A DNA stretch of 64,000 nucleotides, taken from NCBI GenBank assembly GCA_964509195.1, contig CAZDWJ010000008.1, forward strand, positions 61,190-125,189, read 5' to 3'. This stretch comes from an uncultured Leptospira sp. (GTDB lineage Bacteria; Spirochaetota; UBA4802; UB4802). The translations under genes and the position numbers were made by a program. This document shows, in pieces, positions 33,499 through 49,500 of this stretch. Each line of letters starts with the position of its first letter. Position 1 is the stretch's first letter. The notes beneath the pieces are model-generated. The model was given only the letters and a program-made list of their open reading frames with translations, was not told the DNA's origin and did not search any database.

Positions 33499-35646
33499 TC
33501 ATACGTGAGCAGAAATCAAAACTACAGATGACATTTTTTTAGTTAAATAGCTTTCCTGGGAAGGGATTGACGTACCTTGTAGTATTATATCATCAGGTGT
33601 ATGCAGTGAGGTATCGACCACACGTAGCCATTGACTACCGTTAAATGGCTTTGGTAGTGAAAATGCGAGGTCATATTCAGATGCGTTGAATATCATATAT
33701 ATATCATTATCGGGAGTACCGTATTGAAGCTTAGCATATGCACCGTTAAGATGCAATGCAATAGAATGGCTGTAATATCCAAGATCAGGGGCATGGCAGT
33801 TAACACCGTGCCACACGCAATCAGGGTGTGTAAACCCTTGCTGGGCAGTGCCTGATAAAAAGTGCTTTTGCCGTAGTACTGGATGCATTTTGCGAAATTG
33901 AATCAAACACCGCACAAATCTATGTATATCATCAAATTGCTGCATCCTGTCCCAGTTTATCCAGGATATTTCGTTATCCTGGCAGTAGGCGTTGTTGTTA
34001 CCATTTTGAGTTCTACCCATCTCATCTCCTGCAAGCATCATGGGTACACCCTGAGACAAAAACAGTGTAGTAAAAAAATTTTTTATCTGCTGTCTTCTGA
34101 TTGTAAGTATTTCAGGCGGAGCATCATGACCTTCAACGCCGTAGTTACAACTCAAGTTATTGTTGTCCCCGTCTTGATTATTTTCACCATTAGCAAGATT
34201 GTGTTTTTCATTAAATGAAACTAAATCCAGCATAGTAAAGCCATCGTGGCAGGTGATAAAATTAATGCTGTGCAGTGGACTTCTGTTGGTTTTTTGGTAA
34301 ATATCAGGGCTGCCAATAATGCGCTGCATAAAGTTGACAACGGTATCATTATCGCCACGCCAGAAATGACGGACATCGTCACGGAATTTGCCATTCCATT
34401 CGGCCCACCGTCCGGGGAAATGGCCTATTAAGTACGCTCCGCCAGCATCCCAGGCTTCGGCAATAATTTTAGTGTTGCGCAAGATGGGGTCTTCGGATAT
34501 TTTTTCGATAAGTGGTGGATTTTGCAAAATATTTCCATCCTGATCCCTTCCAAGTATTGAAGCCAGATCAAATCTAAATCCATCAACATGCATATCAACA
34601 ACCCAGTAGCGCAAGCAGTCTAAGATAAAATCACGTACCAGTGGATTATTGCAGTTAACTGTGTTACCGCAGCCGGAAAAATTTTGATAAAATCGTTTGT
34701 TCTCTTTCAGCATGTAGTATATAGAATTATCAAAACCTTTAAAACTTATTGTGGGACCCAGATGGTCACCCTCAGCGGTATGATTGAATACAACGTCTAA
34801 AAACACCTCAATGCCAGCTTCATGAAAATCACGGATCATTTCCTTGAATTCATTAATCTGCTGACCCATTGTGCCACTTGATGAATATGTTGATTTTGGT
34901 GCAAAGAACGCAATGGTGCTGTAGCCCCAGTAGTTTTTGAGTCGCTCACCGGTAAACGGGTTCACATTAACATTTTCAAATTCATCAAATTCCTGAATGG
35001 GCATAAGTTCAACGGCAGTAATTCCCAATTCTTTCAAATAGGGTATCTTTTCGGTTAAGCCTTTAAAGGTACCTCTGTGCTTGACATTTGATGATGGATG
35101 ATAGGTAAACCCTTTTACATGAAGTTCGTAGATGATGGTATCTTCCATTGGAGTTTGAATGGGACGATCGTACCAATCAAATTCAGTGTCTACAACAATA
35201 CATTTGGGTGATTCTTTATAGTTTTTATCTGTAGAAAACGAAAGGTCCTCATCCGGGTGCCCCTTAATGTATCCACAGGCTTTGCTGAAATCCCATATAT
35301 GATTGCCACTGATAGCTTTAGCATAGGGGTCAAGCAACAGCTTATTTTTATTAAAACGATGCCCCTGATTAGGCTGATATGGTCCGTCAACTTTATAGCC
35401 ATAAAGCTGTCCTTCACGAATACCAGCAATCCAGATATGCCAGACATCACCTGTTTTATTGAGTTTGGGATCTAATTCAATTTCAATATATTCTTCAGTT
35501 TCTGATGAAGAAAATAGCAGGATTGAAACAGCTGTGGCATGACGGCTGAATAGCGCAAACCGTGCACCATGCCTGTCTAAATGAACACCTAATGGCAGGG
35601 GAGTCCCCGGCAACGTAACAAAATGATGTTGTTTAATGGGATGCAT
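33499..35646 (-). CDS. glgX: glycogen debranching enzyme (GH13 isoamylase-type)
   Basis: 715 aa. GH13 catalytic regions (DGFRFDLASIL; EAWD). N-terminal CBM48-like region. Confidence 0.85.
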   Translation of the reverse strand: MHPIKQHHFVTLPGTPLPLGVHLDRHGARFALFSRHATAVSILLFSSSETEEYIEIELDPKLNKTGDVWHIWIAGIREGQLYGYKVDGPYQPNQGHRFNKNKLLLDPYAKAISGNHIWDFSKACGYIKGHPDEDLSFSTDKNYKESPKCIVVDTEFDWYDRPIQTPMEDTIIYELHVKGFTYHPSSNVKHRGTFKGLTEKIPYLKELGITAVELMPIQEFDEFENVNVNPFTGERLKNYWGYSTIAFFAPKSTYSSSGTMGQQINEFKEMIRDFHEAGIEVFLDVVFNHTAEGDHLGPTISFKGFDNSIYYMLKENKRFYQNFSGCGNTVNCNNPLVRDFILDCLRYWVVDMHVDGFRFDLASILGRDQDGNILQNPPLIEKISEDPILRNTKIIAEAWDAGGAYLIGHFPGRWAEWNGKFRDDVRHFWRGDNDTVVNFMQRIIGSPDIYQKTNRSPLHSINFITCHDGFTMLDLVSFNEKHNLANGENNQDGDNNNLSCNYGVEGHDAPPEILTIRRQQIKNFFTTLFLSQGVPMMLAGDEMGRTQNGNNNAYCQDNEISWINWDRMQQFDDIHRFVRCLIQFRKMHPVLRQKHFLSGTAQQGFTHPDCVWHGVNCHAPDLGYYSHSIALHLNGAYAKLQYGTPDNDIYMIFNASEYDLAFSLPKPFNGSQWLRVVDTSLHTPDDIILQGTSIPSQESYLTKKMSSVVLISAHV

Positions 35647-36110
35647 GTTTAAATAAATATGATTAGCTTTGTTGTGTAAATAGTTACAGCATACAAATAT
35701 GGATGTATGCGCATAACAGTCAATGCAAATTTTTCTTAAACAGTGGTATGTTTATAGCTTATTGTGAAACAGTCCAATACCTTTGGAAAACAAAGATATA
35801 AAAATGCTATAGTAATGGAAGCTAAAAGTGGGGATAAAATGCGCAATGTAAACCATAGCGGTAAAAAAAAGATCAATGTATTTTAAGTTGGTTTATGCTC
35901 TGCAATATTAAAAAATGATATATGGTGTTTCAGTAAAGTGTTAGTTAATACGTTAGATTTAAGGGAACTTGAGTAAATGCATTTATAAAGAAGTACTCAT
36001 GTCATCCACCAATACACTGTGAAGATATTGCTTTAAAAAAAATTTAAAAAAATTCATTGACAAATCTAGTATATATAATAACATCAGACCATATGATAAT
36101 CTGATTTTTT

Positions 36111-37121
36111 TTGTGGACAAAAACCATGATTAAAATTGCTGAATTGCTTCCCCCGCGCCCTTCTGCATTGTGGACCATGGTAAAGCAATGTGGAATAGAG
36201 TATGTTGTTGGCGGTATGCAGCATTACGCTGGCTGGGAAAATATGCCAAAGGACTTCTGGCCATGGAGCTATAATTCACTGGTTCATATTAAGACCAATT
36301 ATGAAAACGGAGGATTTACGCTTGGAGTCATTGAATCCCGACCTCCAATGGAAAAAATAAAATTAGGCCTGCCGGGAAGGGATGAAGAAATTGAAAATGT
36401 CATAATGCTTATACAGAACATGGGGAAACTGGGCATTCCCGTATGGTGTTATGAATGGATGCCCGTGTTTGGTTGGACAAGGACTTCAACAACAACGCCC
36501 ATCCGCGGGGGTGCAATGGCTACCTCTTATGATCATGCACTAATGGAAAAGGCTCCAATGACTGAGTACGGAATTGTAACCGAAGAAACATTATGGAAAA
36601 ATCTACAGTATTTTCTAAACGCCGTTATCCCTGAAGCAGAAAAAGCAGGTGTAAAATTAGCCATGCATCCAGATGATCCACCCATTTCTCCTATTCGCGG
36701 TGTTGCGCGTATTATGCGCTCGGTTGAACATTTTCAAAAGTTACTGGATCTTTATCCAAGTGAGTTTAATGGCATTGCATTGTGTCAGGGTAATTTTGCA
36801 TTGATGACGGATGATCTTCCTGCTGTAATCAGAAAATTTGGAAAACAGGGTAAAATCTTTTTTGTCCATTTCAGGAATGTAAAGGGAACCGCACACAAAT
36901 TTACTGAAACATTTCATGACGATGGGATGATTGATATGTACGAATGCATGAAGGCATACTATGAGATTGGCTATGAGGGACTGATGCGTCCTGATCATGT
37001 TCCCACTATGGAAGGCGATAGCAATGATAATCCTGCCTATTCCTCAATTGGTAGGCTTTTTGCCATTGGGTACATAAAGGGCCTGGCGGAAGCAGTTGAA
37101 AAAAATCAATGCGGAAGGTGA
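36111..37121 (+). CDS. uxuA: D-mannonate dehydratase
   Basis: Conserved blocks match E. coli UxuA: VWCYEWMPVFGWTRT (VCYNFMPVLDWTRT), AMHPDDPPISPIRGVARI (AVHPDDPPRPILGLPRI), MRPDHV...AYSSIGRLFAIGYIKGLAEA (MRPDHG...GYSAIGRLKGLAEVRGV). Confidence 0.85.
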   Translation: MWTKTMIKIAELLPPRPSALWTMVKQCGIEYVVGGMQHYAGWENMPKDFWPWSYNSLVHIKTNYENGGFTLGVIESRPPMEKIKLGLPGRDEEIENVIMLIQNMGKLGIPVWCYEWMPVFGWTRTSTTTPIRGGAMATSYDHALMEKAPMTEYGIVTEETLWKNLQYFLNAVIPEAEKAGVKLAMHPDDPPISPIRGVARIMRSVEHFQKLLDLYPSEFNGIALCQGNFALMTDDLPAVIRKFGKQGKIFFVHFRNVKGTAHKFTETFHDDGMIDMYECMKAYYEIGYEGLMRPDHVPTMEGDSNDNPAYSSIGRLFAIGYIKGLAEAVEKNQCGR

Positions 37122-37129
37122 ATTAGATA

Positions 37130-37830
37130 TGGATACCATACAACCAATTAAGCGTAATAAGCTCACTGAATCGATAGTGAATCTGGTATTGACAAATATT
37201 AAAAATGGCACTCTTCCTCCAGGAAGCAAATTGCCTCCCGAGCGGGAATTGATGAAAAAATTGCAGGTGGGGCGTTCCACATTGCGTGAAGCGGTACAGT
37301 CGCTTGCACTTATGGGTATACTGGATGTAAAACCGGGTGAAGGAACTTTTGTAAGAACTATAGCCAAAGAAGAAATTATTGGCCCTCATTTATTTGTTCC
37401 ATTGATTGATAACGAAAGTATGGCAGATTTTTTTGAAGCTCGCCTTTTAATTGAACCACGCATCGCTGCGCTGGCAAGCAAAAGAAGGAATGCAGAGGAT
37501 ATTAAAGCTATTGAAGATACATTGGTAAAGACAAAACAACATATCAATAGTGGGGAAGATGTGGATCGCTTTGCAGGTCAGTTCCACTTGCAGATTGCAA
37601 AGGCATCAAAAAATATTGTGTGTGTCCGCTTTATGGAAGCCATTCTTTCATTCCTGGTTGGGAAAAGAGAAAACGCTGAACGTAATAAAGCCTTTTTACA
37701 ATGGGAGTATGAATCACACGAAAGCATTTTTACAGCAATAAAAAAGGGAGATGAAACAAAAGCATATAAGGCTATGGAGCAACATATTCAGGCAGTTTCA
37801 CAGTGGTATAAAAAATTAGATGTTGTATGA
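37130..37830 (+). CDS. GntR family transcriptional regulator, FadR/FCD subfamily
   Basis: N-terminal winged HTH (LPPGSKLPPERELMKKLQVGRSTLREAVQSL) and a C-terminal FCD-type all-helical domain. ATG at 37130 is chosen to avoid overlap with uxuA. Confidence 0.8.
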
Positions 37831-37853
37831 TTTTTCACTGATGGAGGTTTGCC

Positions 37854-40700
37854 GTGTATGGGAAACTATCTATTCTATTTTTGATACTTTTTTTTAATGT
37901 TGGGTATGCGATAGCAGCCACGTTCAATGTACTCATCTATCCAACGCCACTAGTATACATACACAATCAATCATATTTTCAGAGAATCATTATACAGGCT
38001 CATCAAGAGTTTGAAGGTGAAATTGTTGCCTGGATGGATGGTGTCAGCACAAAGAAGATAGTTACTACTCCAACAACTAATACAGCTATCGACTGTAAAA
38101 GAAATAGTATCAACTCGCCATCACAATTGAAAATTACTATAAGAAGGAATGATTCTATAGTTGCACAAAAAATCCTGTCAATACCTCCGGTAAAGGAATG
38201 GAAAATCTACTGTGTGCCCTTTGCGCACGTAGACATAGGTTTTACACAATCACAAAAGAATGTCCGCATTCAGAATCTGCGCAATATCGATACACATCTT
38301 TCCTTGTGCCAAAAGACAAAAAACTATCCGCCCGGCTCTCGATTTAAGCTTTTTACGGAAGTGAGCTGGCCTATTATTGAATACCTCAATGACCCGGCAA
38401 CACCTCACAGCAACAAGAATACACTTATTAAAGCATTGAAAAATGGTGATGTTGAGCTGGGTGCTTTTGTCATTTCTCATCAAAATAGGTTTATGAGTAC
38501 TTATGCACTTTTATCATCAGTGCGGCATACACTTACTATCGCACAAAAATACAACGTTGCCGTGAAAACTGCATGTATTCATGATGTCATGGATTTTTCC
38601 AAATTGCCAAAAGTCCTATATGCCAATAATATACCATACTGCCTGATTGGCCCCAATGACTCACGATATATAGTGCCGCCCCTTTTTTATCTAGCATCAC
38701 CTGATGGAAGCGCAAAGGTGCTGGCGTGGCATACCGTTGGGCTTAACGGGTATGGCGAAAATTTTGATTTGAATATGCGTCTTACATTGCCCTTCAAAGA
38801 CGATGATTTTAGCATAATGGAAACCAGCGTTGCACAGCATTTGGCGCAACTTGAAAAAGGATATCCCACAGAAGAAATTTCACGGTATTATGATTATGCA
38901 AACAAACAGTGGAACTATCCCTATGATGCATATCTTTTACCGTATTATCCGTCCCAGGGTGGCGACAATCAGCCTCAGACGATTGTACCTTCAGAAATTG
39001 CAAAGAGATGGAATGCAAAATTTATTAATCCAAAGATAGTCATTGCAACGCCTGCGGATTTCTTTGATTATGTATCAGCTGCGTATGGCGCACAGATTCC
39101 GATTATAAAAGGGGAATTGCCGCCATTCTGGGGTGAACAGATATATTTAGATTTTATTCAGGTTGATCCGCAGCGATTATCAATTAACTACTGGTATGAT
39201 TATGCACACCATTCACGCGGGATACATATGGTACAATCGCTACTTCTTGGTAAGCCTGTTGATATTACATCGTATAGTACACAAAGTCTTGAAGGGTACA
39301 TGGCAATCATACTTAATAATGACCACAATCCCAGACCTGTGCCATTCGGGAAAACGCATTACACAAAGCAGGATGTTCAAGACTGGATGGACACACGCAA
39401 TCAGTGGGTATATGCGCCTTTGAATGTTATGAAGGATGCAAAAGATGTACAGCAAAGCCGTAAGGAAGATGCTTTGTGGACGCTGGTGAACACACAAACA
39501 AATCCTCTAATTCTTGAAAATGCATTCTACCGTATTGCATTTGATAAAACGAAAGGCTGTATTACCAGTATTTTTGATGCACAGCTACAAAAGGAATTGG
39601 TAAACACACAGCACCGCTACGGCTTTAATCAATACGTTATAGGGGTACGGGGTGAAAACACTGGGAAGCGCAATTATTTTGACACCCAGGAAGGATTCAA
39701 ACGCGTCATATCCACGGTATATACAAATCCCAACAACGATTACAAAATAATTGTTAAAGGGTCAGAGCGTTCCTATTACAAGGGTATGGAATTGCTCTCT
39801 GAATTTTTGCATAAAGCATTTGGCATAAAGTTACCACCAACTTTGTTGAAAGTAGCGTATTTTTTCTATCAGCTGTTTACACCATCACTGTCGCTTACAC
39901 AGGAGATTATCATACCTGCTAATGAAAAGCGAATTGATTGTATACAACATTTTGAAGGTACTGCACCTCAAATAGCGGAACATTACTTTGCCTATCCTTT
40001 GGTTTTTGATGAGCTATCGTATGATTCTGGCTTTACGGTTGTAAAATGGAAGAGTCAAGACAATAGCGGTGACCTTATCCCAGCCGCTAAAAATACTGCA
40101 CCATTTAGAAGCATTAACGATACGCTGTATCCATTTCAGTGGATGTACGCAATCCCAACTTCTTTGTATTGTGATGGGTTTGTGTTGCAAAAAGACCGTT
40201 CACACTATGCATTATTTATCACACACAATAGCAAGGCGATAGTTCCAGATAATGATTCAAGTGCATTTTATCACTGTTGCATTGGATGGTCGTTGTGGGG
40301 TACTTTAGGGCTGGGACGCAATTTGCCAGATACTATCGCATTTAAAAGCACTTTTACAAGCTTTACGGCACACACAAAGAATGAAGCGATAGCAACTGCG
40401 TACAAACTTACATTTGATATATCAGGCCACACGAATCAATCGGCTGTAGAGTCACGTAATAGTAATGTGCGTGTTGTATATCTTCAACCTCTTTCAGAAA
40501 AAAGGATTGTTGTTGGTGTTTATGAGCTATCAGGCACGATGCAGTTTACTGAGCTTGTGATAAACACAAAACGTAGGATACTCAAGGCATATCATTCAGA
40601 CATTAATGGAAAAAAAATCAAAGCGCTGCAATTATCAGGAACTTCATTACCATTGAGTCTACATCCACATCAACTATCGTTTATAACATTTGAATTATAA
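37854..40700 (+). CDS. secreted glycoside hydrolase family 38-like protein (putative alpha-mannosidase-like), 948 aa
   Basis: Signal peptide. VPFAHVDIGFTQ resembles the GH38 N-terminal metal-binding motif (VPHSHNDPGW / HMHWDREW), but the first His is Phe here. An extra roughly 120-aa N-terminal domain is present. Family assignment is tentative. Confidence 0.4.
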   Translation: MYGKLSILFLILFFNVGYAIAATFNVLIYPTPLVYIHNQSYFQRIIIQAHQEFEGEIVAWMDGVSTKKIVTTPTTNTAIDCKRNSINSPSQLKITIRRNDSIVAQKILSIPPVKEWKIYCVPFAHVDIGFTQSQKNVRIQNLRNIDTHLSLCQKTKNYPPGSRFKLFTEVSWPIIEYLNDPATPHSNKNTLIKALKNGDVELGAFVISHQNRFMSTYALLSSVRHTLTIAQKYNVAVKTACIHDVMDFSKLPKVLYANNIPYCLIGPNDSRYIVPPLFYLASPDGSAKVLAWHTVGLNGYGENFDLNMRLTLPFKDDDFSIMETSVAQHLAQLEKGYPTEEISRYYDYANKQWNYPYDAYLLPYYPSQGGDNQPQTIVPSEIAKRWNAKFINPKIVIATPADFFDYVSAAYGAQIPIIKGELPPFWGEQIYLDFIQVDPQRLSINYWYDYAHHSRGIHMVQSLLLGKPVDITSYSTQSLEGYMAIILNNDHNPRPVPFGKTHYTKQDVQDWMDTRNQWVYAPLNVMKDAKDVQQSRKEDALWTLVNTQTNPLILENAFYRIAFDKTKGCITSIFDAQLQKELVNTQHRYGFNQYVIGVRGENTGKRNYFDTQEGFKRVISTVYTNPNNDYKIIVKGSERSYYKGMELLSEFLHKAFGIKLPPTLLKVAYFFYQLFTPSLSLTQEIIIPANEKRIDCIQHFEGTAPQIAEHYFAYPLVFDELSYDSGFTVVKWKSQDNSGDLIPAAKNTAPFRSINDTLYPFQWMYAIPTSLYCDGFVLQKDRSHYALFITHNSKAIVPDNDSSAFYHCCIGWSLWGTLGLGRNLPDTIAFKSTFTSFTAHTKNEAIATAYKLTFDISGHTNQSAVESRNSNVRVVYLQPLSEKRIVVGVYELSGTMQFTELVINTKRRILKAYHSDINGKKIKALQLSGTSLPLSLHPHQLSFITFEL

Positions 40701-40714
40701 AAGGAGGAAAACGT

Positions 40715-41419
40715 ATGGCACCAGCATATTCGCATGACGAAATTATAAAACTTTGTGAGCGATTGGAGAAAACCTACACGCCAGCAGTGTGTGATACGCT
40801 TGATGAGATGGGCTTTATGCATCAGGCAATGTGTTCTGGATTTATGCCCATTATGCCACGCGCTGCTGTTGCAGGGCCTGCATTTACAATGGAAGAAGCA
40901 AAGACACGCAAAAGCACACGATTAAAAGAGTATGATCCGGAATTTGTTGCCAAGGTGCTTGAGGATCTGTTTGGCACCATGCAAAAGGGGCAGGTGGTAG
41001 CAGTGAATACTAATGAATTTTACGGTGCAGGTGCGTGGGGTGAGCTTATGTCAACGACGTGCAAATTTTTTGGCGGCGTAAAAGGCGCTGTGGTTGATGG
41101 GCCAATTCGGGATATTAATCGCATTCTGGAAATTGAGTTTCCTGTGTGGGCACGCGGTAATATCCCCACCGATTCAATAGGAAGGGTTGATCTTGTTGGC
41201 ATTGGTGGTCCTATATGGTGTGGTGGCGTGCGGGTAAATCCCGGTGACATTATTTTTGCCGACTGTGATGGAGTGGTAGTTATTCCAATGAAGGATGTTG
41301 ATTTAAAAGAAGTGGTTGAAAAAGCAGAAGAGGTGGTGCAGGCAGAACGGCGTTCACGCCAGGAGATACGGCAGGGCAAGTCATTGCTTGATGTGTACCG
41401 CAAATATGGAAAGCTGTAA
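40715..41419 (+). CDS. RraA-family protein (class II pyruvate-aldolase / RNase E inhibitor fold)
   Basis: 234 aa. GGVKGAVVDGPIRDINRILEIEFPVWARG ... VNPGDIIFADCDGVVVIP matches the RraA/HMG-CHA aldolase family pattern. Confidence 0.8.
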   Translation: MAPAYSHDEIIKLCERLEKTYTPAVCDTLDEMGFMHQAMCSGFMPIMPRAAVAGPAFTMEEAKTRKSTRLKEYDPEFVAKVLEDLFGTMQKGQVVAVNTNEFYGAGAWGELMSTTCKFFGGVKGAVVDGPIRDINRILEIEFPVWARGNIPTDSIGRVDLVGIGGPIWCGGVRVNPGDIIFADCDGVVVIPMKDVDLKEVVEKAEEVVQAERRSRQEIRQGKSLLDVYRKYGKL

Positions 41420-41433
41420 TGTGAGGAAAGGAT

Positions 41434-42405
41434 ATGAAAACAATAGTTGTAACGGGATGTTCAGGGTATCTGGGGCAGCATGTAGTGCAAACGTTACTAC
41501 AGGAACAATATGCAGTCACCGGCATTGATATAAAAGAATCACCGGCACAGGGTCAGAGCAATTTTACGTTTGTCAAAGGCGATATTGTTGATTCTGAATT
41601 TGTGATGAATGCCTGTAAAAATGCTAATGCCGTAGTCCATTGTGCTGCTGCGCTTGCGCAATTTGTCAAAGATGCACAACGCATGCATGATATAAATGTA
41701 ATTGGTACAAAGAATATCATTGGAGCGTGTAAAAAACATGCCATAAAACAATTAGTATTTATCTCATCGGTTGAAGTGTATGGTATTGATGTGCCCGTTC
41801 CCTGTCCTGAGGATGCACCTTTGCGCCCTGTATGTCCATACGGCGAACACAAGGTTGAAGGGGAGCGGATGTGTGCAGAATTAGCCGGGAAAGGCTGTGG
41901 TGTTGCAATCCTCAGACCACCAACAATTAACGGACCCGGGCAAAACGAGCCTTTCCTTGTTGAACAGATGAAAGCTATAAAACAAGGAAAGCCAGTAATT
42001 CTTCCAGGTGGAGGAAAAACACGATTGCAGATGGTGGATGTCCGCGATGTTGCTCAGGCAGTGCTGCTGTCACTCAAAAAAGTTAGCAAAGGAGTACTCA
42101 TTGCAAATATTGCTAGCGATAATGTGCCTACCATCCGCCAGATGGTAAAAGCTCTGTTTAATCATGCAGGAAAGAAAGAAAAGATACTATCTGTACCTGC
42201 ACCTGTAGCACGTGCTATTGTCAAAACCCTTTCATTGTTTGGCATATCACCGCTGGAACCACAACATCTGGAAATAGCACTGCGCGATTATGTGTTTGAT
42301 AATACACGAGCAAAGAAAGAGTTGGGATGGAAACCAACCAAAAATGACATTGAAAGCGCTATTGATGCATATGAGTGGTTTATCCACCACAATCCTTCGA
42401 CGTAG
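41434..42405 (+). CDS. NAD-dependent epimerase/dehydratase family (extended SDR) protein
   Basis: VTGCSGYLGQHVV Rossmann motif, catalytic YxxxK (YGEHK). 323 aa. Confidence 0.8.
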   Translation: MKTIVVTGCSGYLGQHVVQTLLQEQYAVTGIDIKESPAQGQSNFTFVKGDIVDSEFVMNACKNANAVVHCAAALAQFVKDAQRMHDINVIGTKNIIGACKKHAIKQLVFISSVEVYGIDVPVPCPEDAPLRPVCPYGEHKVEGERMCAELAGKGCGVAILRPPTINGPGQNEPFLVEQMKAIKQGKPVILPGGGKTRLQMVDVRDVAQAVLLSLKKVSKGVLIANIASDNVPTIRQMVKALFNHAGKKEKILSVPAPVARAIVKTLSLFGISPLEPQHLEIALRDYVFDNTRAKKELGWKPTKNDIESAIDAYEWFIHHNPST

Positions 42406-42540
42406 CATTGAAAATAATGGAATTAGCTATGAAACAGGGGGTTCCACTGCAAAAATTAGTCACTCATAAATTTAGCATTGATGAAGCTGAAGCGGCATTG
42501 CTACGAAGTGATTACATGAAAGCAGTAATTGTGCCATAAG
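42375..42540 (+). pseudogene. relic 3' end (about 50 codons) of a zinc-dependent MDR dehydrogenase gene
   Basis: Translates to ...SFDVALKIMELAMKQGVPLQKLVTHKFSIDEAEAALLRSDYMKAVIVP*. This is the typical C-terminus of threonine/sorbitol-dehydrogenase-like MDRs (..iTH.F.L.e...Af......K.vi). No N-terminal part exists. It overlaps the SDR gene's last 30 nt in another frame. Confidence 0.45.
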
Positions 42541-42560
42541 TATATTGATGAGGATGAGTC

Positions 42561-43262
42561 ATGAACATTTTTTTTATATTAATTGGACAGGCAACCGTTG
42601 TTATTAACGTAAATGGGATAGTCTTTATGACCGATCCCTGGTGGGGCTCTTTTGAATTTTTGCGTGCAGTCCCATTGTCAATAAATCCAGAGGAAATATC
42701 ACCTCTGCATTATATGCTAGTTTCACATAATCACATTGATCATTGGTGTGAGAGTGCCATCAAACTGGCAAAAGAAAAGGATTGCATGGTTATAGGGTCA
42801 ACAAAATCGGTAAAACGTGCCCGTAAAAAGAGTGTTAAACAATGTAAGGCTCTGACCCCGGGCGATAGTGTTGATTGCAATGGTGTTATGGTGTATGCGG
42901 TTCCAGGATTTCATCCATTTGCAAAGGATGCAATAGGCTTTATCATACAAAAAGGTAATATTACACTGTATTTTTCGGGGGATACGCTGTACACTGAAAA
43001 TTTACTCAAGGCTCTGACCCCATACTCAGTAACTATCGCCATGATACAGGTTGCCTGTTCCACCTACCCACTGGTGGGTAAAGACGGGATGGATTTGGAG
43101 GCGGCATCACGCTTTGTTGCAGATGTAAAACCTGGGATTGTAATACCCATACACTATCAGATAAAGGGAAAGTACCTCACTTACGCGCAGTTACAAAACT
43201 GGAACGTTGATGCACAAAAAATTATTTTGCCCCATGGGAAGGAGTTTCATTTGCAAATATAA
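42561..43262 (+). CDS. MBL-fold metallo-hydrolase (possible lactonase)
   Basis: 233 aa. HNHIDHW metal-binding motif. Confidence 0.7.
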   Translation: MNIFFILIGQATVVINVNGIVFMTDPWWGSFEFLRAVPLSINPEEISPLHYMLVSHNHIDHWCESAIKLAKEKDCMVIGSTKSVKRARKKSVKQCKALTPGDSVDCNGVMVYAVPGFHPFAKDAIGFIIQKGNITLYFSGDTLYTENLLKALTPYSVTIAMIQVACSTYPLVGKDGMDLEAASRFVADVKPGIVIPIHYQIKGKYLTYAQLQNWNVDAQKIILPHGKEFHLQI

Positions 43263-43508
43263 GGGAACTTTTAAAAAACCATTTATAAGGTTGTTCCCTT
43301 GTGGGCACAATATATAGGCAAAAACCGCTTTTTTGCTGCTAATTGTAAGGATGAAAGTGGTTTTTAGAGGTGCCCATAATTTCTGGGATTTTAGTGCAAT
43401 TGTTGTAACAAAATGAGAATAGCATGAAAATGTTATATTGATCACTACCAAAAGGAGAAACATCCAGGGTTGTAAAGACTAAATTTTCGATCGCATAATG
43501 ACCTCAAA

Positions 43509-44858
43509 ATGACATTACAAAAAAATATTTTGGAGGAAAGTATGATAGAAAAGCCACCTTCTGGTTTTAACCTCATCAAAGTGTTGGGTCCGGGGCTTGT
43601 GTGGTCGGCAAGTGCAATTGGGGTGTCAGAGCTTGTGTTTGCCACACGTTCTGGCGCGTTATTTGGATATTTGTTGTTATGGGCGCCGATTGTATCTCTT
43701 GTGATGAAGTATGCTATCTTTGAGCTGGTTGGCCGATACACCATTGCAACAGGTCAAAATGTCCTGATTGCATTTGCCCAGGTTGAAATTGATCTAAAAC
43801 TTTTCAAACTAAAAACCGGGTGGGTGATAACACTTTTCTGGATAGTGTTTATTGCAAGTGTTTCAGGAATAGCAGGTATTGCCTTGTCGGTTGGTAGCTG
43901 CATATACGGGCTTGTTCCTGCAATTTCAATGGAGATGGCAACGGTGTGTTCGATAGTAGCTGTTGGAATAATTTTGTATTTAGGAAGTTATGTAACGCTG
44001 GAAAAAATATCACGGGTGCTGGTTTTTGTAATGATACTGTTTTTAGTGTATGCATTAATCGAAACTTCTCCCAATCCAGCTGAGATGGCAGGTGGTCTGC
44101 TACCACGGGCGCCGTTTTACACGTTACGTGAGCTCATTCCGCTTTTAGGGTGGACTGGTGCAGGAGCCATAGGCGTGGTATGGTATTCATTATGGATAGA
44201 AGGCAGTAAACGTGGTAAAGGCGATAACACCATAGATACAGACGAAGACAAGCACAGGATAAAAAAATGGATAACCATTAATCAAATAGATTTAAGCATT
44301 AACACTCTCATCACCGCACTGTTAACAGTATTGTTTTTGATTGCAGGTGCAGTGATATTATACCCCAGAGGTATAGTTCCTAAAGGTGAGCAATTAGGCC
44401 TGCACATATCACAGATTGCAGGGGAGAGCTTTGGCAAAGCAGGCGAGATAATTTTTCTTGTTGGCATCTTTGGCACACTGTTTAGCACATTGCTTGCAAA
44501 TATTGATGGATTATGCCGTGTAGCATCTAACTCTGTGTGGTATAGGCGCAAAAAAGATGGCGATAGCAAGTTGCATTATTATAGACTTTTTGTTTTTGTT
44601 TACGTGATACTCACAGCTCTGTTTGCAGTGGTTTTTCCTGCCCCGGTAATACTATTGCAAATTTCTGCAATCATTGATACAGTTTTTTTGCCACTGGTTA
44701 TTGGTCTTGGTATCTACATCTGCCACACACACCTGCCAGATATCTACCGGCCGGGGAAGACACTTACCATAACTGCAATAGCATCAGCACTTTTTTTTAC
44801 TTTTTTTATTGGACTATTTTTCTGGGCTGTGATAATGAAAGTTAACTTTTCAATGTAA
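43509..44858 (+). CDS. Nramp-fold (APC/LeuT superfamily) transporter lacking the canonical metal-binding motifs
   Basis: 449 aa, 11-12 TM helices. The TM1 region GPGLVWSASAIGVSE...FGYLLLW aligns to the Nramp GPGFLMSIAYIDPGN...GFKLLW block with DPGN replaced by GVSE. The TM6 MPH position reads WYS. Confidence 0.6.
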   Translation: MTLQKNILEESMIEKPPSGFNLIKVLGPGLVWSASAIGVSELVFATRSGALFGYLLLWAPIVSLVMKYAIFELVGRYTIATGQNVLIAFAQVEIDLKLFKLKTGWVITLFWIVFIASVSGIAGIALSVGSCIYGLVPAISMEMATVCSIVAVGIILYLGSYVTLEKISRVLVFVMILFLVYALIETSPNPAEMAGGLLPRAPFYTLRELIPLLGWTGAGAIGVVWYSLWIEGSKRGKGDNTIDTDEDKHRIKKWITINQIDLSINTLITALLTVLFLIAGAVILYPRGIVPKGEQLGLHISQIAGESFGKAGEIIFLVGIFGTLFSTLLANIDGLCRVASNSVWYRRKKDGDSKLHYYRLFVFVYVILTALFAVVFPAPVILLQISAIIDTVFLPLVIGLGIYICHTHLPDIYRPGKTLTITAIASALFFTFFIGLFFWAVIMKVNFSM

Positions 44859-44868
44859 GCACGTAAGT

Positions 44869-45891
44869 ATGAATACTGTTATGTTCGATAGCTCAAAATA
44901 TTTTATCTGCTTTGGGGAAGTGCTCCTACGCATGTCACCACCAGATACTCAGCAGTTGATGCAAACAAATGTGTTTCATTCATATTTTGGTGGTGCTGAA
45001 GCCAATTGTGCAGTGTTGCTATCGCAGCTTGGATTAAAAACAAAATTAATTACTGCAATACCTGATAATGACCTTGGGAAGGCTTTAGTGCGATATTTTA
45101 GATCATTTGGTATTGCTATGGATAATGTCATAGTAGTGCAAGATGCACGAGTGGGAGTTTATTTTTATGAAAAAGGCATAGGTGTGCGTCCTTCACGATT
45201 AATATACGACCGGGGTCACAGTGCGTTTGCATTAATACAAAAAGGTGACATCAACTGGGAAGAGGTTTTGAAAGACTGTGGCTGGTTTCATACTACAGGG
45301 ATAACGCTTTCACTATCGCCGGTAATAGTTGAAGAAACACTGAAAGCATGTGACATTGTGAAGAGTACTCACGGCATTGTATCGTTTGACATTAATTATC
45401 GCTCAACATTATGGAAAGATATACAGTTAGCTAAAAGTATTATTGGCGAATTTGTAAAAAAAGTAGATGTGTTAATTGGGAATGAAGAACATATAAAGAT
45501 GCTTTTATTGTCGGAGAATGTATCACACTATTATGATATTATAGATTATCTTTTTACAAAGTTTCCCAATTTGAACAGTATATTGCTAACACATCGATAT
45601 GGTACAACCGCTTCTGAGGTTGAAATAGGAGCAGTAGCAGCAACACATGATGCTAGTACAGAATTAAAAATTAGAAAACTGCATAATGTTGTTGACCGGG
45701 TGGGTTCAGGAGACGCGATGGCAGCAGCGTTTATGTACGGATTAATGAGTAGCTACACGTTAGAATACTGTGTTGATTTTGCTATAGCAGCTGGTGGTCT
45801 GGCGCATATGATCGATGGTGATAATTTTATTGTGAGTGCTAACGATATCCTTACAGTAATGAAAGATGCAGGCTGGCAATTAATCCGGTAA
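44869..45891 (+). CDS. kdgK: PfkB-family sugar kinase, 2-dehydro-3-deoxygluconokinase-like
   Basis: 340 aa. GGAEAN, DINYRSTLW (KdgK DNNYRPRLW) and the C-terminal GSGDAMAAAF anion-hole motif. Confidence 0.75.
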   Translation: MNTVMFDSSKYFICFGEVLLRMSPPDTQQLMQTNVFHSYFGGAEANCAVLLSQLGLKTKLITAIPDNDLGKALVRYFRSFGIAMDNVIVVQDARVGVYFYEKGIGVRPSRLIYDRGHSAFALIQKGDINWEEVLKDCGWFHTTGITLSLSPVIVEETLKACDIVKSTHGIVSFDINYRSTLWKDIQLAKSIIGEFVKKVDVLIGNEEHIKMLLLSENVSHYYDIIDYLFTKFPNLNSILLTHRYGTTASEVEIGAVAATHDASTELKIRKLHNVVDRVGSGDAMAAAFMYGLMSSYTLEYCVDFAIAAGGLAHMIDGDNFIVSANDILTVMKDAGWQLIR

Positions 45892-46860
45892 GTGGGGGGG
45901 GTTATGGTATCAAAAAAAAGAAGATACATCATAGCTCTTGTAATCGCAGCATGCATTGTACTGGTGGTAATCTGTAAACCAGTTGATAAAGGAAAACCAT
46001 ATAATGATTACTTTGCTTCACTAAATAAAGAATTAAAAACAAGTGGGATTGCATTACCGTGTATCATAATAGATCTTGACTGAGTAGACCATAATATACA
46101 TCAAATGAACAGTTTACTGAAAGCTCCACTTAATTATCGTATAGTAACAAAATCACTGCCTTCCATAGAGTTGCTGGATTATGTGATGAAAAAAAACCAG
46201 CACTAATAAGCTCATGGAATTTCATCAACCATATCTGTCGCTTATAGTAAAAAAGTATGGTTATAACCTGGATATTCTTTTGGGTAAGCCGTTTCCCATA
46301 CAAAGCGTACAAAAATTTTATAATGATTTTCCAAAGAGTGACTATCAGCAGTTATTTGGTGAATGATATTGCAGCAGGCTCATGTGTGGTTAAACCATCT
46401 ACTTTTGATTTTTTTACTCTTGATACACATATTCCAGCACTATTTATTGCAGCTCCAATTTTGAAAAAAATTAATAGCTATGAGGTGCCATTTCTTGAAC
46501 TGTTTAACTGACTGATAGAGTGATGGGATCCAAACTGCAGGCAAACATATTATACGTATGGTGGTGGGTGGAACGAACTTATAGATTCTCCTGAAGGTGT
46601 TTTTGTAAATGCACTGACTGCAAGCCCTCCCAACGAAAATTTGCTTCCCAATCAGAGTATGCTGAATGGGTCATCGTCAACAAAACTTGAAGTGGGGGAT
46701 TTTGTCTTTTATAGGCCAAAACAGGGGGATGCGTTATTTCATTTCTGAGATATTATCGTTATTAGGAATGGTAAAATCATTGCATCGTGGAAACCATTTC
46801 CTGAAAGATTTTAATTTTACAATATCTTTACAGGGTCTTCATAATTTCTTTATAATTATG
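45892..46860 (+). pseudogene. frameshifted remnant of a DSD1-family PLP enzyme gene (D-serine deaminase / D-threonine aldolase-like, alanine-racemase-fold)
   Basis: Segments in three frames: ...GIALPCIIIDLD* / VDHNIHQMNSLLKAPLNYRIVTKSLPSIELL / KLMEFHQPYLSLIVKKYGYNLDILLGKPFP / EGVFVNALTASPPNENLLPNQSMLNGSSSTKLEVGDFVFYRPKQGDALFHF* / DIIVIRNGKIIASWKPFPE. They follow the N- and C-terminal domain order of DSD1 enzymes but are interrupted by multiple stops and frameshifts. Confidence 0.5.
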
Positions 46861-47005
46861 AGATTTGTTACAGTTAATAGTTAATTCCTATCAGTTATTG
46901 GAATACATTTTTTCAATTTCATATCTGTTGTAGTGGTATTGCTTTTAGCAGCAGCATTGGAAAGTGTATTAAAGGAATTTATAAAACAAATAATAGTAAA
47001 TTGCT

Positions 47006-47914
47006 ATGTTAAAAGATACTTTAAAATCAGCACTTAATATCCACAACGTAAGCGACAAAATGGTGAAATATATCTTCGCTGTTGTGGGATTTTTATCTGT
47101 TTCGTTTTTGTTTTTGATCATGATATTCCTCTTCAAGGAAGGTCTTCCAATTTTTAAAACGGTCAGTCTAAAGGATTTCATTTTTGGAACAAGTTGGTAT
47201 CCAACGTCAGAACCTCCAAAATTTGGGACGTTGCCATTGATTGTAGCATCATTATCAGTTACATTTGTTGCTGCTATTTTAGCTGTGCCATTCAGTTTAG
47301 GGATAGCAATCTATTTATCAGAATTGGCACCTGCATTTGTCCGTGAAATCGTCAAGCCAACCATTGAACTTATAGCATCTATTCCATCGGTTATCATTGG
47401 TTTTTTTGGAATGGTTGTTATTGCTCCATTTCTACAGTACCATTTTGATATTGATACTGGGTTGAATCTTTTTAATGCTTCAATCATGCTTGCTTTTATG
47501 GCAATACCAACAATCGCAAGCATATCAGAGGATGCTTTATCATCTGTACCGATATCATTGAAAGAGGCATCATACGCGCTTGGTGCAAACCGTTGGCAGA
47601 CAATTGTGCACATCACTATGCCTGCAGCTCTTTCAGGTATATGGACAGCTATTATACTAGGTATAGCACGAGTTCTTGGCGAAACAATGGTGGTGCTTAT
47701 GGTAGCTGGTGGTGCAACAACATTTCCCACATCGCTGTTTGACCCGGTGAGACCATTGACATCAAATATTGCTGCTGAAATGGCAGAGGCATCATATCGC
47801 AGTGACCATTATTTTGCATTGTTTGCAATAGGCATAATATTGTTTCTGCTTACGATGCTTTTTAATATTATAGCTAACTACCTTTCATTACGATATAAAT
47901 TCAAATATCATTAA
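47006..47914 (+). CDS. pstC: phosphate ABC transporter permease
   Basis: 302 aa, 6 TM helices, EAA-like loop region. 8 nt upstream of pstA. Confidence 0.85.
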   Translation: MLKDTLKSALNIHNVSDKMVKYIFAVVGFLSVSFLFLIMIFLFKEGLPIFKTVSLKDFIFGTSWYPTSEPPKFGTLPLIVASLSVTFVAAILAVPFSLGIAIYLSELAPAFVREIVKPTIELIASIPSVIIGFFGMVVIAPFLQYHFDIDTGLNLFNASIMLAFMAIPTIASISEDALSSVPISLKEASYALGANRWQTIVHITMPAALSGIWTAIILGIARVLGETMVVLMVAGGATTFPTSLFDPVRPLTSNIAAEMAEASYRSDHYFALFAIGIILFLLTMLFNIIANYLSLRYKFKYH

Positions 47915-47922
47915 AGGAAACT

Positions 47923-48789
47923 ATGGCATCATTACAGGCAAAAGCGAAAGCAATTGAAAAAACATCATTCATAATAATCAGTTCTCTGTCATATATCATA
48001 ATAGCGTTCCTGTTGTTTGTGCTGGGGTACATATTTTTACAGGGTTATCGAGCATTATCATGGGAATTTTTAACTGCATTCCCAAAAAACGAAATGCGTG
48101 AGGGGGGAATCTACCCGGCAATATTAGGAACATTCTACCTTATGGTAGGCTCTTCAGTTATATCGGTTCCTATTGGTATCATGACAGCAATATATTTGAC
48201 TGAGTATGTGGAAAATATTAAGGTGCTCCAATTCATACGGTTGGGTATCAATAATCTAGCTGGTGTACCATCGGTAGTATTTGGCCTTTTTGGATTAAGT
48301 GTTTTTGTTATATTCCTGGATTTTGGTTCTTCTATTGTTGCTGGATCACTAACATTGGGAATTCTCAACCTTCCGCTCGTCATACGTTCAACCGAGGAAG
48401 CACTGCTAACAGTGCCAATTTCATATCGTGAAGCTTCGTTATCGTTAGGTGCAACCAAATGGCAGACAATTTATAAGATAGTTCTGCCAACAGCTCTACC
48501 GGGTATACTGACGGGCATTATGCTGTCACTGGGAAGAGCAGCAGGGGAGACAGCTCCGATAATGTTTACCTGCGCTACATTTTACACACCGCATATCCCT
48601 GACTCCCTGTTCAGTGAAGTGATGGCGCTGCCCTATCACATTTATGTACTGGCTACAGCAGGAACTCACATTGAAGCAACACGGCATATACAATATGGAA
48701 CAGCGATAGTACTTATTGCACTGGTGTTGGGATTAAATTTTACCGGCATGGTATTGCGGTACAAATACAGAAAGAAATTTAAACAGTAG
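47923..48789 (+). CDS. pstA: phosphate ABC transporter permease
   Basis: 288 aa. PstA-type permease with conserved loop region. Confidence 0.85.
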   Translation: MASLQAKAKAIEKTSFIIISSLSYIIIAFLLFVLGYIFLQGYRALSWEFLTAFPKNEMREGGIYPAILGTFYLMVGSSVISVPIGIMTAIYLTEYVENIKVLQFIRLGINNLAGVPSVVFGLFGLSVFVIFLDFGSSIVAGSLTLGILNLPLVIRSTEEALLTVPISYREASLSLGATKWQTIYKIVLPTALPGILTGIMLSLGRAAGETAPIMFTCATFYTPHIPDSLFSEVMALPYHIYVLATAGTHIEATRHIQYGTAIVLIALVLGLNFTGMVLRYKYRKKFKQ

Positions 48790-48961
48790 TGTTTTTATTT
48801 TACTCTAAAAGTTTTAATTAAATTGCACCAGCCTCTTTTGATAAAAAATGTGATTTTCATTCTGTATCTGTGACGATTTTGCACTGCAATGAAATTGTTA
48901 AGATGATATTGTTAACAAGCACACATTGTGATAAACTGTAATAATGAAAATATTTACATAG

Positions 48962-49156
48962 AATGATGAAAAGAATACACTATTGAAAAGAACCGGAGTA
49001 TTTCTTTTTAAGGTTGTGGTTAATTGTATTCAAGAGGGCAAATTATTGTCAATTGTTGAGCATAAAAATCCAGATAGATATCCTAACCAAAGGATGTACA
49101 TAATTGAGTTTAACAATTATGTATATTTAGTCCCTTTTATTAAAACTGAAAAGTAA
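48962..49156 (+). pseudogene. possible remnant of a small toxin gene (partner of the adjacent BrnA-like antitoxin relic)
   Basis: Open frame without ATG: ...KRTGVFLFKVVVNCIQEGKLLSIVEHKNPDRYPNQRMYIIEFNNYVYLVPFIKTEK*. A short ATG frame MMKRIHY* precedes it in frame +1. Composition resembles small toxins that pair with COG3514-type antitoxins. Family assignment is uncertain. Confidence 0.25.
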
Positions 49157-49237
49157 ATTTTTTTGAAAACAATTATTCCCATAAGAAGAGCAACGAAATT
49201 TTCTCTAGAGGAAAATAAAAAAACAAATTTAGTAAAT

Positions 49238-49500
49238 ATGAAAAGAGATGTAGTAGAATTTTATAAAAATAATGAGTTAGAAAGAAGTTAAGGGGATAAA
49301 GAATAAAATTAAAAGACATGGAAGCCATGCAAAAGCTGCTTTAAAGAACGATAAACGCGTAAATATACGAATTTCACAAAAGAATCTTGAATCATTACAA
49401 AATAGCGTTGGAAGAAGGTATTCCTTACCAAACTTTGATGTCCAGTGTACTTCGTAAATATGCAAATGGGAAATTAGTTGAAGTTAAGAAATATAAATAA
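49238..49500 (+). pseudogene. BrnA-like (COG3514, ribbon-helix-helix) antitoxin gene disrupted by frameshifts
   Basis: Frame 1: MKRDVVEFYKNNELERS*. Frame 2: ...KRHGSHAKAALKNDKRVNIRISQKNLESLQN. Frame 3: IALEEGIPYQTLMSSVLRKYANGKLVEVKKYK*. The joined text matches the BrnA hallmark K.V..Rld.d.l......G.gYQT.in..Lr.Y. The second shift is at the A-run TTACAAAATAGCG (about 49396-49408). Confidence 0.4.

Follow-up and report, generated by a model that had tools for sequence, protein, structure and literature searches.

The analysis of a 64-kb stretch of DNA from an uncultured Leptospira sp. (contig CAZDWJ010000008.1; hereafter the window) revealed that the open reading frame (ORF) at positions 40715–41419 of the plus strand (234 codons, ATG start) encodes an RraA-like protein that retains an invariant set of catalytic residues and is embedded in an operon whose neighbourhood is conserved in other genomes. 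These sequence comparisons give good support to a metabolic role that involves a 2-keto-3-deoxy sugar acid, because the orthologues found across phyla adjoin genes for sugar-acid dehydratases, usually along with genes for a short-chain dehydrogenase/reductase (SDR), a metallo-beta-lactamase-fold (MBL) hydrolase and a protein resembling the glycoside hydrolases of family GH38. With regard to the reaction, the protein may be a pyruvate aldolase that depends on a metal and acts on a 2-keto-3-deoxy-hexonate, either non-phosphorylated or epimeric, an assignment that is placed first among those considered and is nevertheless held at somewhat less than an even chance.

Fold and catalytic residues

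The whole of the RraA-like profile PF03737 is matched by the protein (profile positions 1–152 of 152; E 1.5e-31, 110 bits against a cutoff of 24.5), and the RraA-family ORF that a preliminary description of this DNA had placed here was thereby confirmed, with a length of 234 amino acids. More specific profiles were not reached. The RraA equivalog NF006875 gives 35.1 bits against a cutoff of 136, the equivalogs of the HMG/CHA aldolases, named after 4-hydroxy-4-methyl-2-oxoglutarate and 4-carboxy-4-hydroxy-2-oxoadipate, are missed as well (TIGR02798, 81.9 against 304.5 bits; NF006731, 94.9 against 179 bits), and the top NCBIfam match, under its cutoff, is the uncharacterised family PRK08245. The Eda profile (PF01081) does not match the protein.

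The nearest solved structures by sequence are all long RraA-like proteins, namely 5ir2 (E 7e-23), 5x15, 3k4i (E 9e-19) and 3noj (E 2e-16). An AlphaFold (AF2) model built on 50 relatives (pLDDT 92.7) superimposes on these four with query-normalised TM-scores (TMq) of 0.73–0.79, and Foldseek gives a probability of 1.00 to all of them, to 2c5q and to RraA structures. The short RraA structures, RraA proper being a form of about 160 amino acids, span only about half of the model (TMq 0.51–0.56). Judged from its profile scores and predicted fold, the protein is not an RNase E regulator of the Escherichia coli type.

Four residues, Glu110, Arg132, Asp133 and Glu211, are invariant in an alignment of 50 relatives with 40–90% identity. 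A profile alignment to 3NOJ, the HMG/CHA aldolase of P. putida F1, places them at Asp102, Arg123, Asp124 and Glu199, respectively. In that enzyme the metal is bound by the acidic residues Asp124 and Glu199, and Arg123 serves to stabilise the pyruvate enolate (PMC5065237). The preliminary description had proposed inspecting the metal- and pyruvate-binding residues of the HMG/CHA aldolases, and no loss was found among them. Because the residues for a metal-bound 2-oxo acid and its enolate are kept, the machinery for binding a 2-oxo acid and a divalent metal and for forming the enolate is intact, which argues for an enzyme. This enzyme would depend on a divalent metal held by Asp133, Glu110 and Glu211 and would bind a 2-oxo acid, with Arg132 steadying a pyruvate-type enolate.

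The likeness to the HMG/CHA aldolases (LigK/GalC/ProA type) extends to the α-β-β-α fold (TMq 0.76 with 3NOJ) and to the long form of about 230 amino acids with a C-terminal helix, and the metal-dependent pyruvate-enolate chemistry of these enzymes would be expected for the window protein too. The two differ in that the identity is only 24–28%, Asp102 is replaced by a glutamate, the substrate of the window protein would be devoid of the 4-carboxylate, and the genomic context is that of sugar-acid rather than protocatechuate or gallate catabolism; genes for the 4,5-cleavage of protocatechuate or gallate are absent from the window and from the orthologous loci.

Two of the structural relatives, 5IR2 (from a gut microbe and labelled 'novel cellulase') and 3K4I (PSPTO_3204), are uncharacterised long RraA-like proteins with 31–34% and 24–26% identity, respectively, to the window protein, and the literature searched yielded no credible biochemical function for either. 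5IR2 has a glycine at the position of Glu110. A 74% identical orthologue of 5IR2 is encoded in an Opitutaceae metagenome-assembled genome (MAG) (locus L089, 6201–10639) in the order IclR, UxuA-like, unknown, SDR, RraA-like, that is, in the same module, and the 'cellulase' label is probably wrong.

A conserved cluster with interchangeable dehydratases

In the window, eight genes on one strand, separated by short gaps or overlapping, extend from a uxuA-like gene to the gene of a 2-keto-3-deoxygluconate (KDG)-type kinase (36111–45891). Their order is uxuA-like, GntR/FCD regulator, GH38-like, RraA-like, extended SDR, MBL hydrolase, Nramp-like transporter and KDG kinase. The RraA-like gene, with AAGGAGG located 6–12 nt 5' of its start codon, is thus placed as first described, between the GH38-like gene on its 5' side (37854–40700) and the SDR gene on its 3' side (41434–42405), and in the direction of uxuA (36111–37121) and kdgK (44869–45891), both on the plus strand.

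Related loci were fetched with 10-kb flanks (160 in all; L numbers are their labels), and about 17 distinct orthologous architectures were compared from called genes with Pfam labels and from phmmer labelling with seeds taken from those loci. The orthologues share 56–95% identity with the window protein and occur in MAGs of Spirochaetota, Desulfomonilia and other 'delta proteobacteria', and further in Dehalococcoidia and other Chloroflexota, Syntrophomonadaceae, Hydrogenedentota, Abyssubacteria and others. In all but four of the architectures (L096, L098, L177 and L178) the RraA-like gene is next to or near a gene for a sugar-acid dehydratase, and this partner is drawn from four unrelated families. 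A UxuA-like dehydratase is found in the window, L017, L097 and L001-3; an enolase-superfamily dehydratase in L007/8 and L095; an IlvD-like dehydratase in L009/10, L011-13, L014-16, L018, L094, L100, L103, L179 and L006; and a GarD/UxaA-like dehydratase (SAF and GD_AH domains) in L004/5, L099 and L101. The IlvD-like proteins score at the threshold of true dihydroxy-acid dehydratases. The conserved core block reads RraA-SDR-MBL or RraA-LarA-IlvD-SDR-MBL, and its usual companions are the GH38-like gene and an Nramp-like or MFS_2 transporter gene. Among the distant relatives (33–42% identity), 34 of 75 have a dehydratase of these families within 5 kb. The neighbours of these relatives are otherwise heterogeneous (in a Pfam census of 124 immediate neighbours, AIRC 10, NIPSNAP 9, adh_short 8 and MR_MLE 7), and for that reason they were dropped as a guide to the reaction.

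A LarA-type (Lar_N) 2-hydroxyacid racemase/epimerase accompanies the IlvD-like dehydratase in 10 of 11 arrangements and is also seen with the GD_AH type, and it never occurs alongside the UxuA-like or enolase-type dehydratases (window, L017, L001-3, L007 and L095). The nearest NCBIfam profiles to this protein are malate racemases, under their cutoff. The distribution suggests that LarA may epimerise C2 and so fit one aldonate to different dehydratases; the native aldonate would then be of the 2S,3S (manno-type) configuration, taken directly by UxuA and requiring C2 inversion for the other dehydratases.

A promoter-like TTGACA-16-TAACAT site (36057–36084, plus strand) lies 5' of uxuA. A candidate GntR/FCD operator (AACATCAGACCATA) overlaps it, the two together covering 36057–36093 (promoter scan and motif search). 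The consensus of the candidate operator, ATCATCAGACCATC (TGATGAT), is one half of the palindrome ATCATCAGACCATCTGATGAT. Only one site in the window matches the motif well, at 36080–36093 and with two mismatches; it overlaps the promoter before uxuA. Exact copies of the motif are present in L017 (5342–5355, 5' of uxuA) and in L001 (6353–6366 and 16383–16396), so that in three related Spirochaetota genomes the motif overlaps the uxuA or cluster promoter and may act as an operator. In L001-3, uxuA has been relocated to the distal end of the cluster and lies on the opposite strand, and the motif stands before the gntR operon and again about 40 nt before uxuA. Since the motif precedes both parts when they are split, uxuA and the RraA-like operon appear to belong to one regulon. 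This shared candidate regulon, the dehydratase context across phyla and the low RraA equivalog score bear out the metabolic role that the preliminary description had preferred to RNase E regulation.

Assignment of the reaction

Under the favoured assignment the operon would serve the oxidative breakdown of a mannose-type sugar. The sugar would be freed by the GH38-like hydrolase and converted via the lactone to the aldonic acid by the extended SDR and the MBL hydrolase, and the UxuA-like dehydratase would then form a 2-keto-3-deoxy-hexonate (KDG or a stereoisomer). In the other genomes this dehydration would fall to an enolase-type, IlvD-like or GarD/UxaA-like enzyme, the last two together with a LarA-type 2-epimerase. 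The RraA-like protein would cleave the non-phosphorylated (or 4-epimeric) 2-keto-3-deoxy acid in a retro-aldol reaction to pyruvate and an aldehyde, its substrate being KDG or a stereoisomer that Eda cannot use. Such a cleavage would run parallel to the branch formed by KDG kinase and the aldolase for KDPG (2-keto-3-deoxy-6-phosphogluconate), as in the branched Entner-Doudoroff (ED) pathways of archaea.

Three observations place the retro-aldol reaction first. The SDR, the MBL protein, the RraA-like protein and the dehydratase match the classical non-phosphorylative set of four enzymes, made up of aldose dehydrogenase, lactonase, dehydratase and an enzyme for C-C cleavage to pyruvate. Many clusters are devoid of both the kinase and any other C-C cleaving enzyme (L094, L011-13, L179 and L007/L095). 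In the SDR-less clusters L004/L101 a molybdenum aldehyde oxidoreductase gene directly follows that of the dehydratase, as would be expected if an aldehyde were a co-product or, alternatively, if an aldose were oxidised directly. A 'semialdehyde dehydrogenase' gene after the SDR gene in L007/L095 was considered as further evidence of an aldehyde product and was discarded, as it encodes a genuine ArgC (430 bits against a cutoff of 230).

The same cleavage of KDG or KDPG to pyruvate and glyceraldehyde (3-phosphate), which the RraA-like protein would share under the favoured assignment, is carried out by the archaeal KD(P)G aldolase of the branched ED pathway (DHDPS/NAL family) and by Eda. In Thermoproteus and Sulfolobus the archaeal KD(P)G aldolase genes cluster with those of a glycosidase, a sugar-acid dehydratase and a KDG kinase. 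Both enzymes differ from the RraA-like protein in being unrelated class I, Schiff-base-forming TIM barrels, and Eda often co-occurs with the RraA-like gene. Terminal C-C cleavage by an enzyme paired with an SDR is also known from the non-phosphorylative L-fucose and L-rhamnose routes, where it is performed by the 2,4-diketo-3-deoxy-L-fuconate/rhamnonate hydrolases of the FAH family; these are possible functional analogues of the RraA-like protein with an unrelated fold.

A number of observations weigh against the retro-aldol assignment, some of them from clusters that already have another aldolase. L177 (73% identity) is a compact RraA-like/Eda/PfkB operon in which the eda gene (PF01081) overlaps the stop codon of the RraA-like gene by 4 nt, L098 (74%) reads aminotransferase-RraA-SDR-Eda-PfkB, and L009/10 (75%) and L018 (57%) contain an adjacent Eda-PfkB pair within the cluster. 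A paralogue with 41% identity in a Bacillota MAG (L036, 2226–13246) lies in the order SDR-RraA-SDR-Eda-PfkB, and the 5' part of that locus encodes a Zn-dependent alcohol dehydrogenase (Zn-ADH), a GntR regulator, two enolase-type dehydratases and an IlvD/EDD-family dehydratase. In L001-3 (87% identity, Spirochaetota) a gene for an HpcH/HpaI-family aldolase is divergent from uxuA; the operator is on the uxuA side, and co-regulation of the HpcH/HpaI gene is uncertain. A second aldolase beside Eda and KdgK looks redundant. The clade also departs from the motif reportedly described by Mazurkewich in 2014 for the HMG/CHA aldolases, D-X20-R-D with Asp102 as its first residue or, alternatively, G-X20-R-D-X2-E/D: it has E110-X21-R132-D133, with a glutamate for the aspartate and an insertion of one residue, and the sequence RDINR does not provide the X2-E/D of the alternative form. 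The change is conservative, and it is plausible from the sequence that catalysis is still possible. Moreover, just one enzyme of the family that acts on a sugar acid has been characterised, FlDet of Flavobacterium sp. UMI-01, and it shows no activity towards KDG, KDPG or 4-hydroxy-2-oxoglutarate (PMC8563752).

The mannose assignment within the proposed pathway is soft, as it is based on the remote GH38 relation, on the short-form UxuA-like protein and on an analogy with haloarchaea. Reported independently, the β-mannan clusters of natronoarchaea encode the same trio of a mannonate dehydratase (ManD), an extended SDR labelled 'UDP-glucose 4-epimerase' and an RraA-family 'putative oxaloacetate decarboxylase', and the route predicted for them leads from mannose via mannonate and KDG into a semi-phosphorylative ED pathway with no role assigned to the RraA gene (PMC10963439). 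The argument that UxuA is exchanged for ManD, which would make mannonate the substrate, was weakened, since the L007 dehydratase of the enolase type resembles GudD and is not a ManD.

In the window itself no Eda, HpcH/HpaI or DHDPS-type aldolase was found when all ORFs of 150 or more amino acids over the 64 kb were scanned with Pfam, and tblastn with genuine Eda and HpcH seeds gave zero matches at E ≤ 1, in agreement with the preliminary description, which had noted the absence of an Eda-type aldolase. Its further proposal, that the RraA-like protein occupies the place of Eda, was not supported. It had regarded an eda gene elsewhere in the genome, co-regulated with uxuA/kdgK, as an arrangement at odds with this proposal, and eda is found next to kdgK in orthologous clusters of other genomes. 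Altogether, four or more orthologous architectures and one paralogous architecture have Eda and KdgK in a cluster or operon with the RraA-like gene. Because Eda and PfkB co-occur in the orthologous clusters, the RraA-like protein would in many lineages work with KdgK and Eda and not instead of Eda. Thus, of the original idea of a KDG/KDPG aldolase, the part concerning 2-keto-3-deoxy sugar-acid metabolism stands, on the residues and the operon, and the part concerning a replacement of Eda is weakened.

The co-occurrence with Eda is best accommodated by a different function, that of an epimerase or isomerase that would turn the dehydratase product into KDG and feed KdgK and Eda, either through retro-aldol cleavage followed by re-addition or through enolisation, perhaps in concert with the SDR next to it. 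The pathway would then run from the aldonate via an intermediate X to KDG, KDPG and finally pyruvate and glyceraldehyde 3-phosphate. This is the sole interpretation free of redundancy in the Eda-containing architectures (L177, L098, L036, L009/10 and L018); it also suits the window, with kdgK in the operon and eda possibly elsewhere, and the enolate chemistry is backed by the conserved residues. There is a precedent in the anhydrogalactose pathway, where pairs of SDRs convert 2-keto-3-deoxy-hexonate stereoisomers into KDG. However, the four unrelated dehydratase families would all have to give a product other than KDG, which UxuA-type enzymes normally yield directly, and the clusters devoid of kinase or Eda (L094, L011-13, L179 and L007/L095) would need unlinked genes. 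We also know of no activity of this kind in the RraA fold. An epimerase or isomerase is on balance possible but unlikely, with something over one chance in five.

The position of the SDR gene is relevant to another possibility, a hydrolase of 2,4-diketo-3-deoxy acids (acylpyruvate type) acting together with the adjacent SDR. The SDR would oxidise the C4 hydroxyl group, and the RraA-like protein would hydrolyse the C3-C4 bond to give pyruvate and a carboxylic acid (glycerate in the case of KDG). The adjacency of RraA-like and SDR genes recurs in arrangements that are otherwise unrelated, namely in the window, L007, L098, L089 (SDR-RraA with a UxuA-like gene), L021 (RraA-SDR-lactonase-SDR with IlvD/EDD nearby) and L036 (SDR-RraA-SDR), and a pyruvate-enolate leaving group is also found in the oxaloacetate decarboxylase activity of the HMG/CHA aldolases (PMC5065237). 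Against this, the window has one SDR, and in 9 of 10 architectures the SDR is paired with the MBL 'lactonase', so that it is better explained as an aldose dehydrogenase; moreover, SDR-less orthologous clusters exist (L004/L101 and L006). To our knowledge, diketo-acid hydrolysis has no example in the RraA fold either, and we consider this function improbable, with a chance of a little under one in seven.

FlDet provides a further comparison, since activity on a 2-keto-3-deoxy sugar acid has been demonstrated for no other member of the RraA family: it is a dehydratase/decarboxylase of about 235 amino acids, stimulated by Mg2+, Co2+ or Ni2+, that converts 2-keto-3-deoxy-glucarate (KDGR) to α-ketoglutarate semialdehyde (α-KGSA), and its orthologues are 63–80% identical (PMC8563752). 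A dehydration of this kind, with or without decarboxylation, would yield a keto-semialdehyde from a 2-keto-3-deoxy aldarate or aldonate, in the manner of a Weimberg-type route. FlDet belongs to the same family as the window protein and has a similar length. Because it also keeps the same set of conserved residues (Asp/Arg-Asp/Glu), these are equally compatible with an aldolase and with the FlDet reaction; furthermore, genes for a GarD-like dehydratase and an aldehyde oxidoreductase follow the RraA-like gene in L004. However, FlDet (sequence taken from the supplement of PMC8563752) has 28% identity to the window protein (E 3e-10; 26% over the family alignment), no closer than other long RraA-like proteins, and the 160 fetched loci include no FlDet orthologue (identity ≤32%). 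FlDet acts only on the aldarate KDGR and together with an α-KGSA dehydrogenase, whereas no gene of this Aldedh family is present in the window cluster or in the listed orthologous loci. The uxuA-like gene and the KDG kinase indicate a hexonate and not an aldarate, and the co-operonic Eda and KdgK would be left unexplained. A FlDet-like reaction is consequently very improbable. Least credible of all is a non-catalytic regulator, be it an RNase E/ES inhibitor like E. coli RraA and S. coelicolor RraAS2 or a modulator of a neighbouring enzyme, as the fold common to RraA and the second place among the structural matches by sequence of RraAS2 (5x15, a described RNase ES inhibitor of the long form with D-X20-R-D) are outweighed by the failure to reach the RraA equivalog, by the coverage of only about half of the model by short RraAs, by the invariant catalytic residues and by the strict confinement of the gene to catabolic operons across phyla.

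The idea that most RraA-like proteins are enzymes, along with the fold and the catalytic motif, was already known (PMC5065237). Novelty seems to lie in this clade and in a conserved cluster whose dehydratase can be exchanged, and no description of it was found in the literature searched; a search for an RraA-fold KDG aldolase, or for a link between LarA and RraA, returned nothing relevant beyond FlDet and the haloarchaeal mannan cluster. The chances are about equal, in our estimation, for and against the joint proposition that these genes form an undescribed, phylum-spanning module (GH38-like protein, RraA-fold protein, extended SDR, MBL lactonase, transporter and interchangeable dehydratase, with or without a LarA-type 2-epimerase) and that its RraA-fold protein has a reaction new to the fold, as either a fourth non-homologous aldolase for KDG or 2-keto-3-deoxygalactonate (KDGal) or a 2-keto-3-deoxy-hexonate epimerase/isomerase leading into KdgK and Eda. 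If true, this would represent a new oxidative route for a sugar (probably mannose) in uncultured anaerobes and would explain what a LarA-type 2-hydroxyacid epimerase does physiologically when it accompanies an IlvD-like dehydratase. RraA-like proteins are routinely labelled 'regulator of RNase E' or 'HMG aldolase', and most organisms carrying them have neither target. The superfamily comprises 12,348 cluster representatives at E ≤ 1e-3, of which the clade accounts for one to three clusters at 50% identity, and the ties of the clade and of its relatives with 33–42% identity to dehydratases, SDRs, lactonases and KdgK/Eda offer a concrete entry to the function of a large share of the family.

Neighbouring genes and related loci

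The remaining proteins of the operon were assigned to families, and the roles given to the SDR, the MBL protein, the GH38-like protein, the transporter and LarA are putative. The uxuA-like gene (36111–37121, plus strand) encodes a short-form sugar-acid (mannonate-type) dehydratase of 336 amino acids (PF03786, E 5e-96; NCBIfam NF003027, 252.7 bits against a cutoff of 191). It is followed by the gene of the GntR/FCD transcriptional regulator (37096–37830, plus strand; PF00392 and PF07729), which is kept at the head of the orthologous clusters. The GH38-like glycoside hydrolase (37854–40700, plus strand; 948 amino acids) is a remote relative of α-mannosidases, with 27 bits against a cutoff of 25 for PF01074. 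The domains PF01074, PF07748, PF17677 and PF09261 are present in its homologues, and the family profile matches the GH38 mannosidases 6lz1 and 7ufs; a single-sequence search of the PDB was without a match. Its gene is directly 5' of the RraA-like gene in most orthologous clusters. The N-terminus (window 37854–37940) contains a hydrophobic, signal-peptide-like segment, KLSILFLILFFNVGYAIA, which suggests that the protein may act outside the cytoplasm, and residues 125–127 form an H-V-D motif that resembles the GH38 metal site.

Downstream of the RraA-like gene, the extended SDR of the NAD-dependent epimerase/dehydratase family (41434–42405, plus strand; PF01370, E 2e-43) has the GDP-sugar 4-epimerase 8rdg as top PDB relative (E 9e-24), a match that is uninformative for naming. 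In the orthologous clusters the SDR gene adjoins that of the RraA-like protein or the dehydratase. The SDR is presumed to be an aldose 1-dehydrogenase or, alternatively, a 2-keto-3-deoxy-acid dehydrogenase or epimerase. The MBL-fold metal hydrolase (42561–43262, plus strand; PF12706 and PF13483, with an HNHIDH motif), whose top PDB match is TM1162 (UPF0173, 3e-8), comes after the SDR in nearly all orthologous clusters and is presumed to be a lactonase. The divergent Nramp-like transporter (43509–44858, plus strand; PF01566, E 3.7e-18, 66 bits; NF037982, 107 bits) may carry a sugar or sugar acid and not a metal, or may alternatively supply Mn2+ or Fe2+ to UxuA or the RraA-like enzyme; its slot is occupied by an MFS_2/GPH transporter in L007, L011 and L179. 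The last gene encodes the PfkB-family KDG/KDGal-type kinase (44869–45891, plus strand; PF00294), whose top NCBIfam matches, all under their cutoffs, are the kinase part of a KHG/KDPG-aldolase/kinase fusion and KDG/KDGal kinases.

Some related loci show additional genes. In two unrelated genomes (L006 and L098) a class-III aminotransferase gene is directly beside the RraA-like orthologue, and the 5' side of L098 also has genes for BKACE, an FAD oxidoreductase and DUF6206; these may represent a variant pathway for an amino sugar acid. A paralogue with 41% identity in Paenibacillus nitricinens (L021, 6996–13122) is accompanied by three GFO/IDH/MocA oxidoreductases, two SDRs, an SMP-30 lactonase and an IlvD/EDD protein, and this locus and L036 are textbook-looking oxidative sugar clusters.

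On the other side of the promoter, the glycogen debranching enzyme GlgX (33499–35646, minus strand; TIGR02100, 806 bits, above cutoff) is encoded divergently from the uxuA operon. The genes at 47006–55452 encode PstC, PstA, a histidine kinase, a response regulator, PhoU, PstB and two PstS-like binding proteins, a complete and ordinary set for phosphate uptake and its regulation that appears unrelated to the RraA-like finding. Between kdgK and pstC (45892–46900) there is a series of short ORFs on the same strand in shifting frames, among them MGGVMVSKKRRYIIALV...IIDLD*, then MNSLLKAPLNYRIVTKSLPSIELLDYVMKK... and on to ...LEVGDFVFYRPKQGDALFHF, which looks like one decayed gene with stops and frameshifts.

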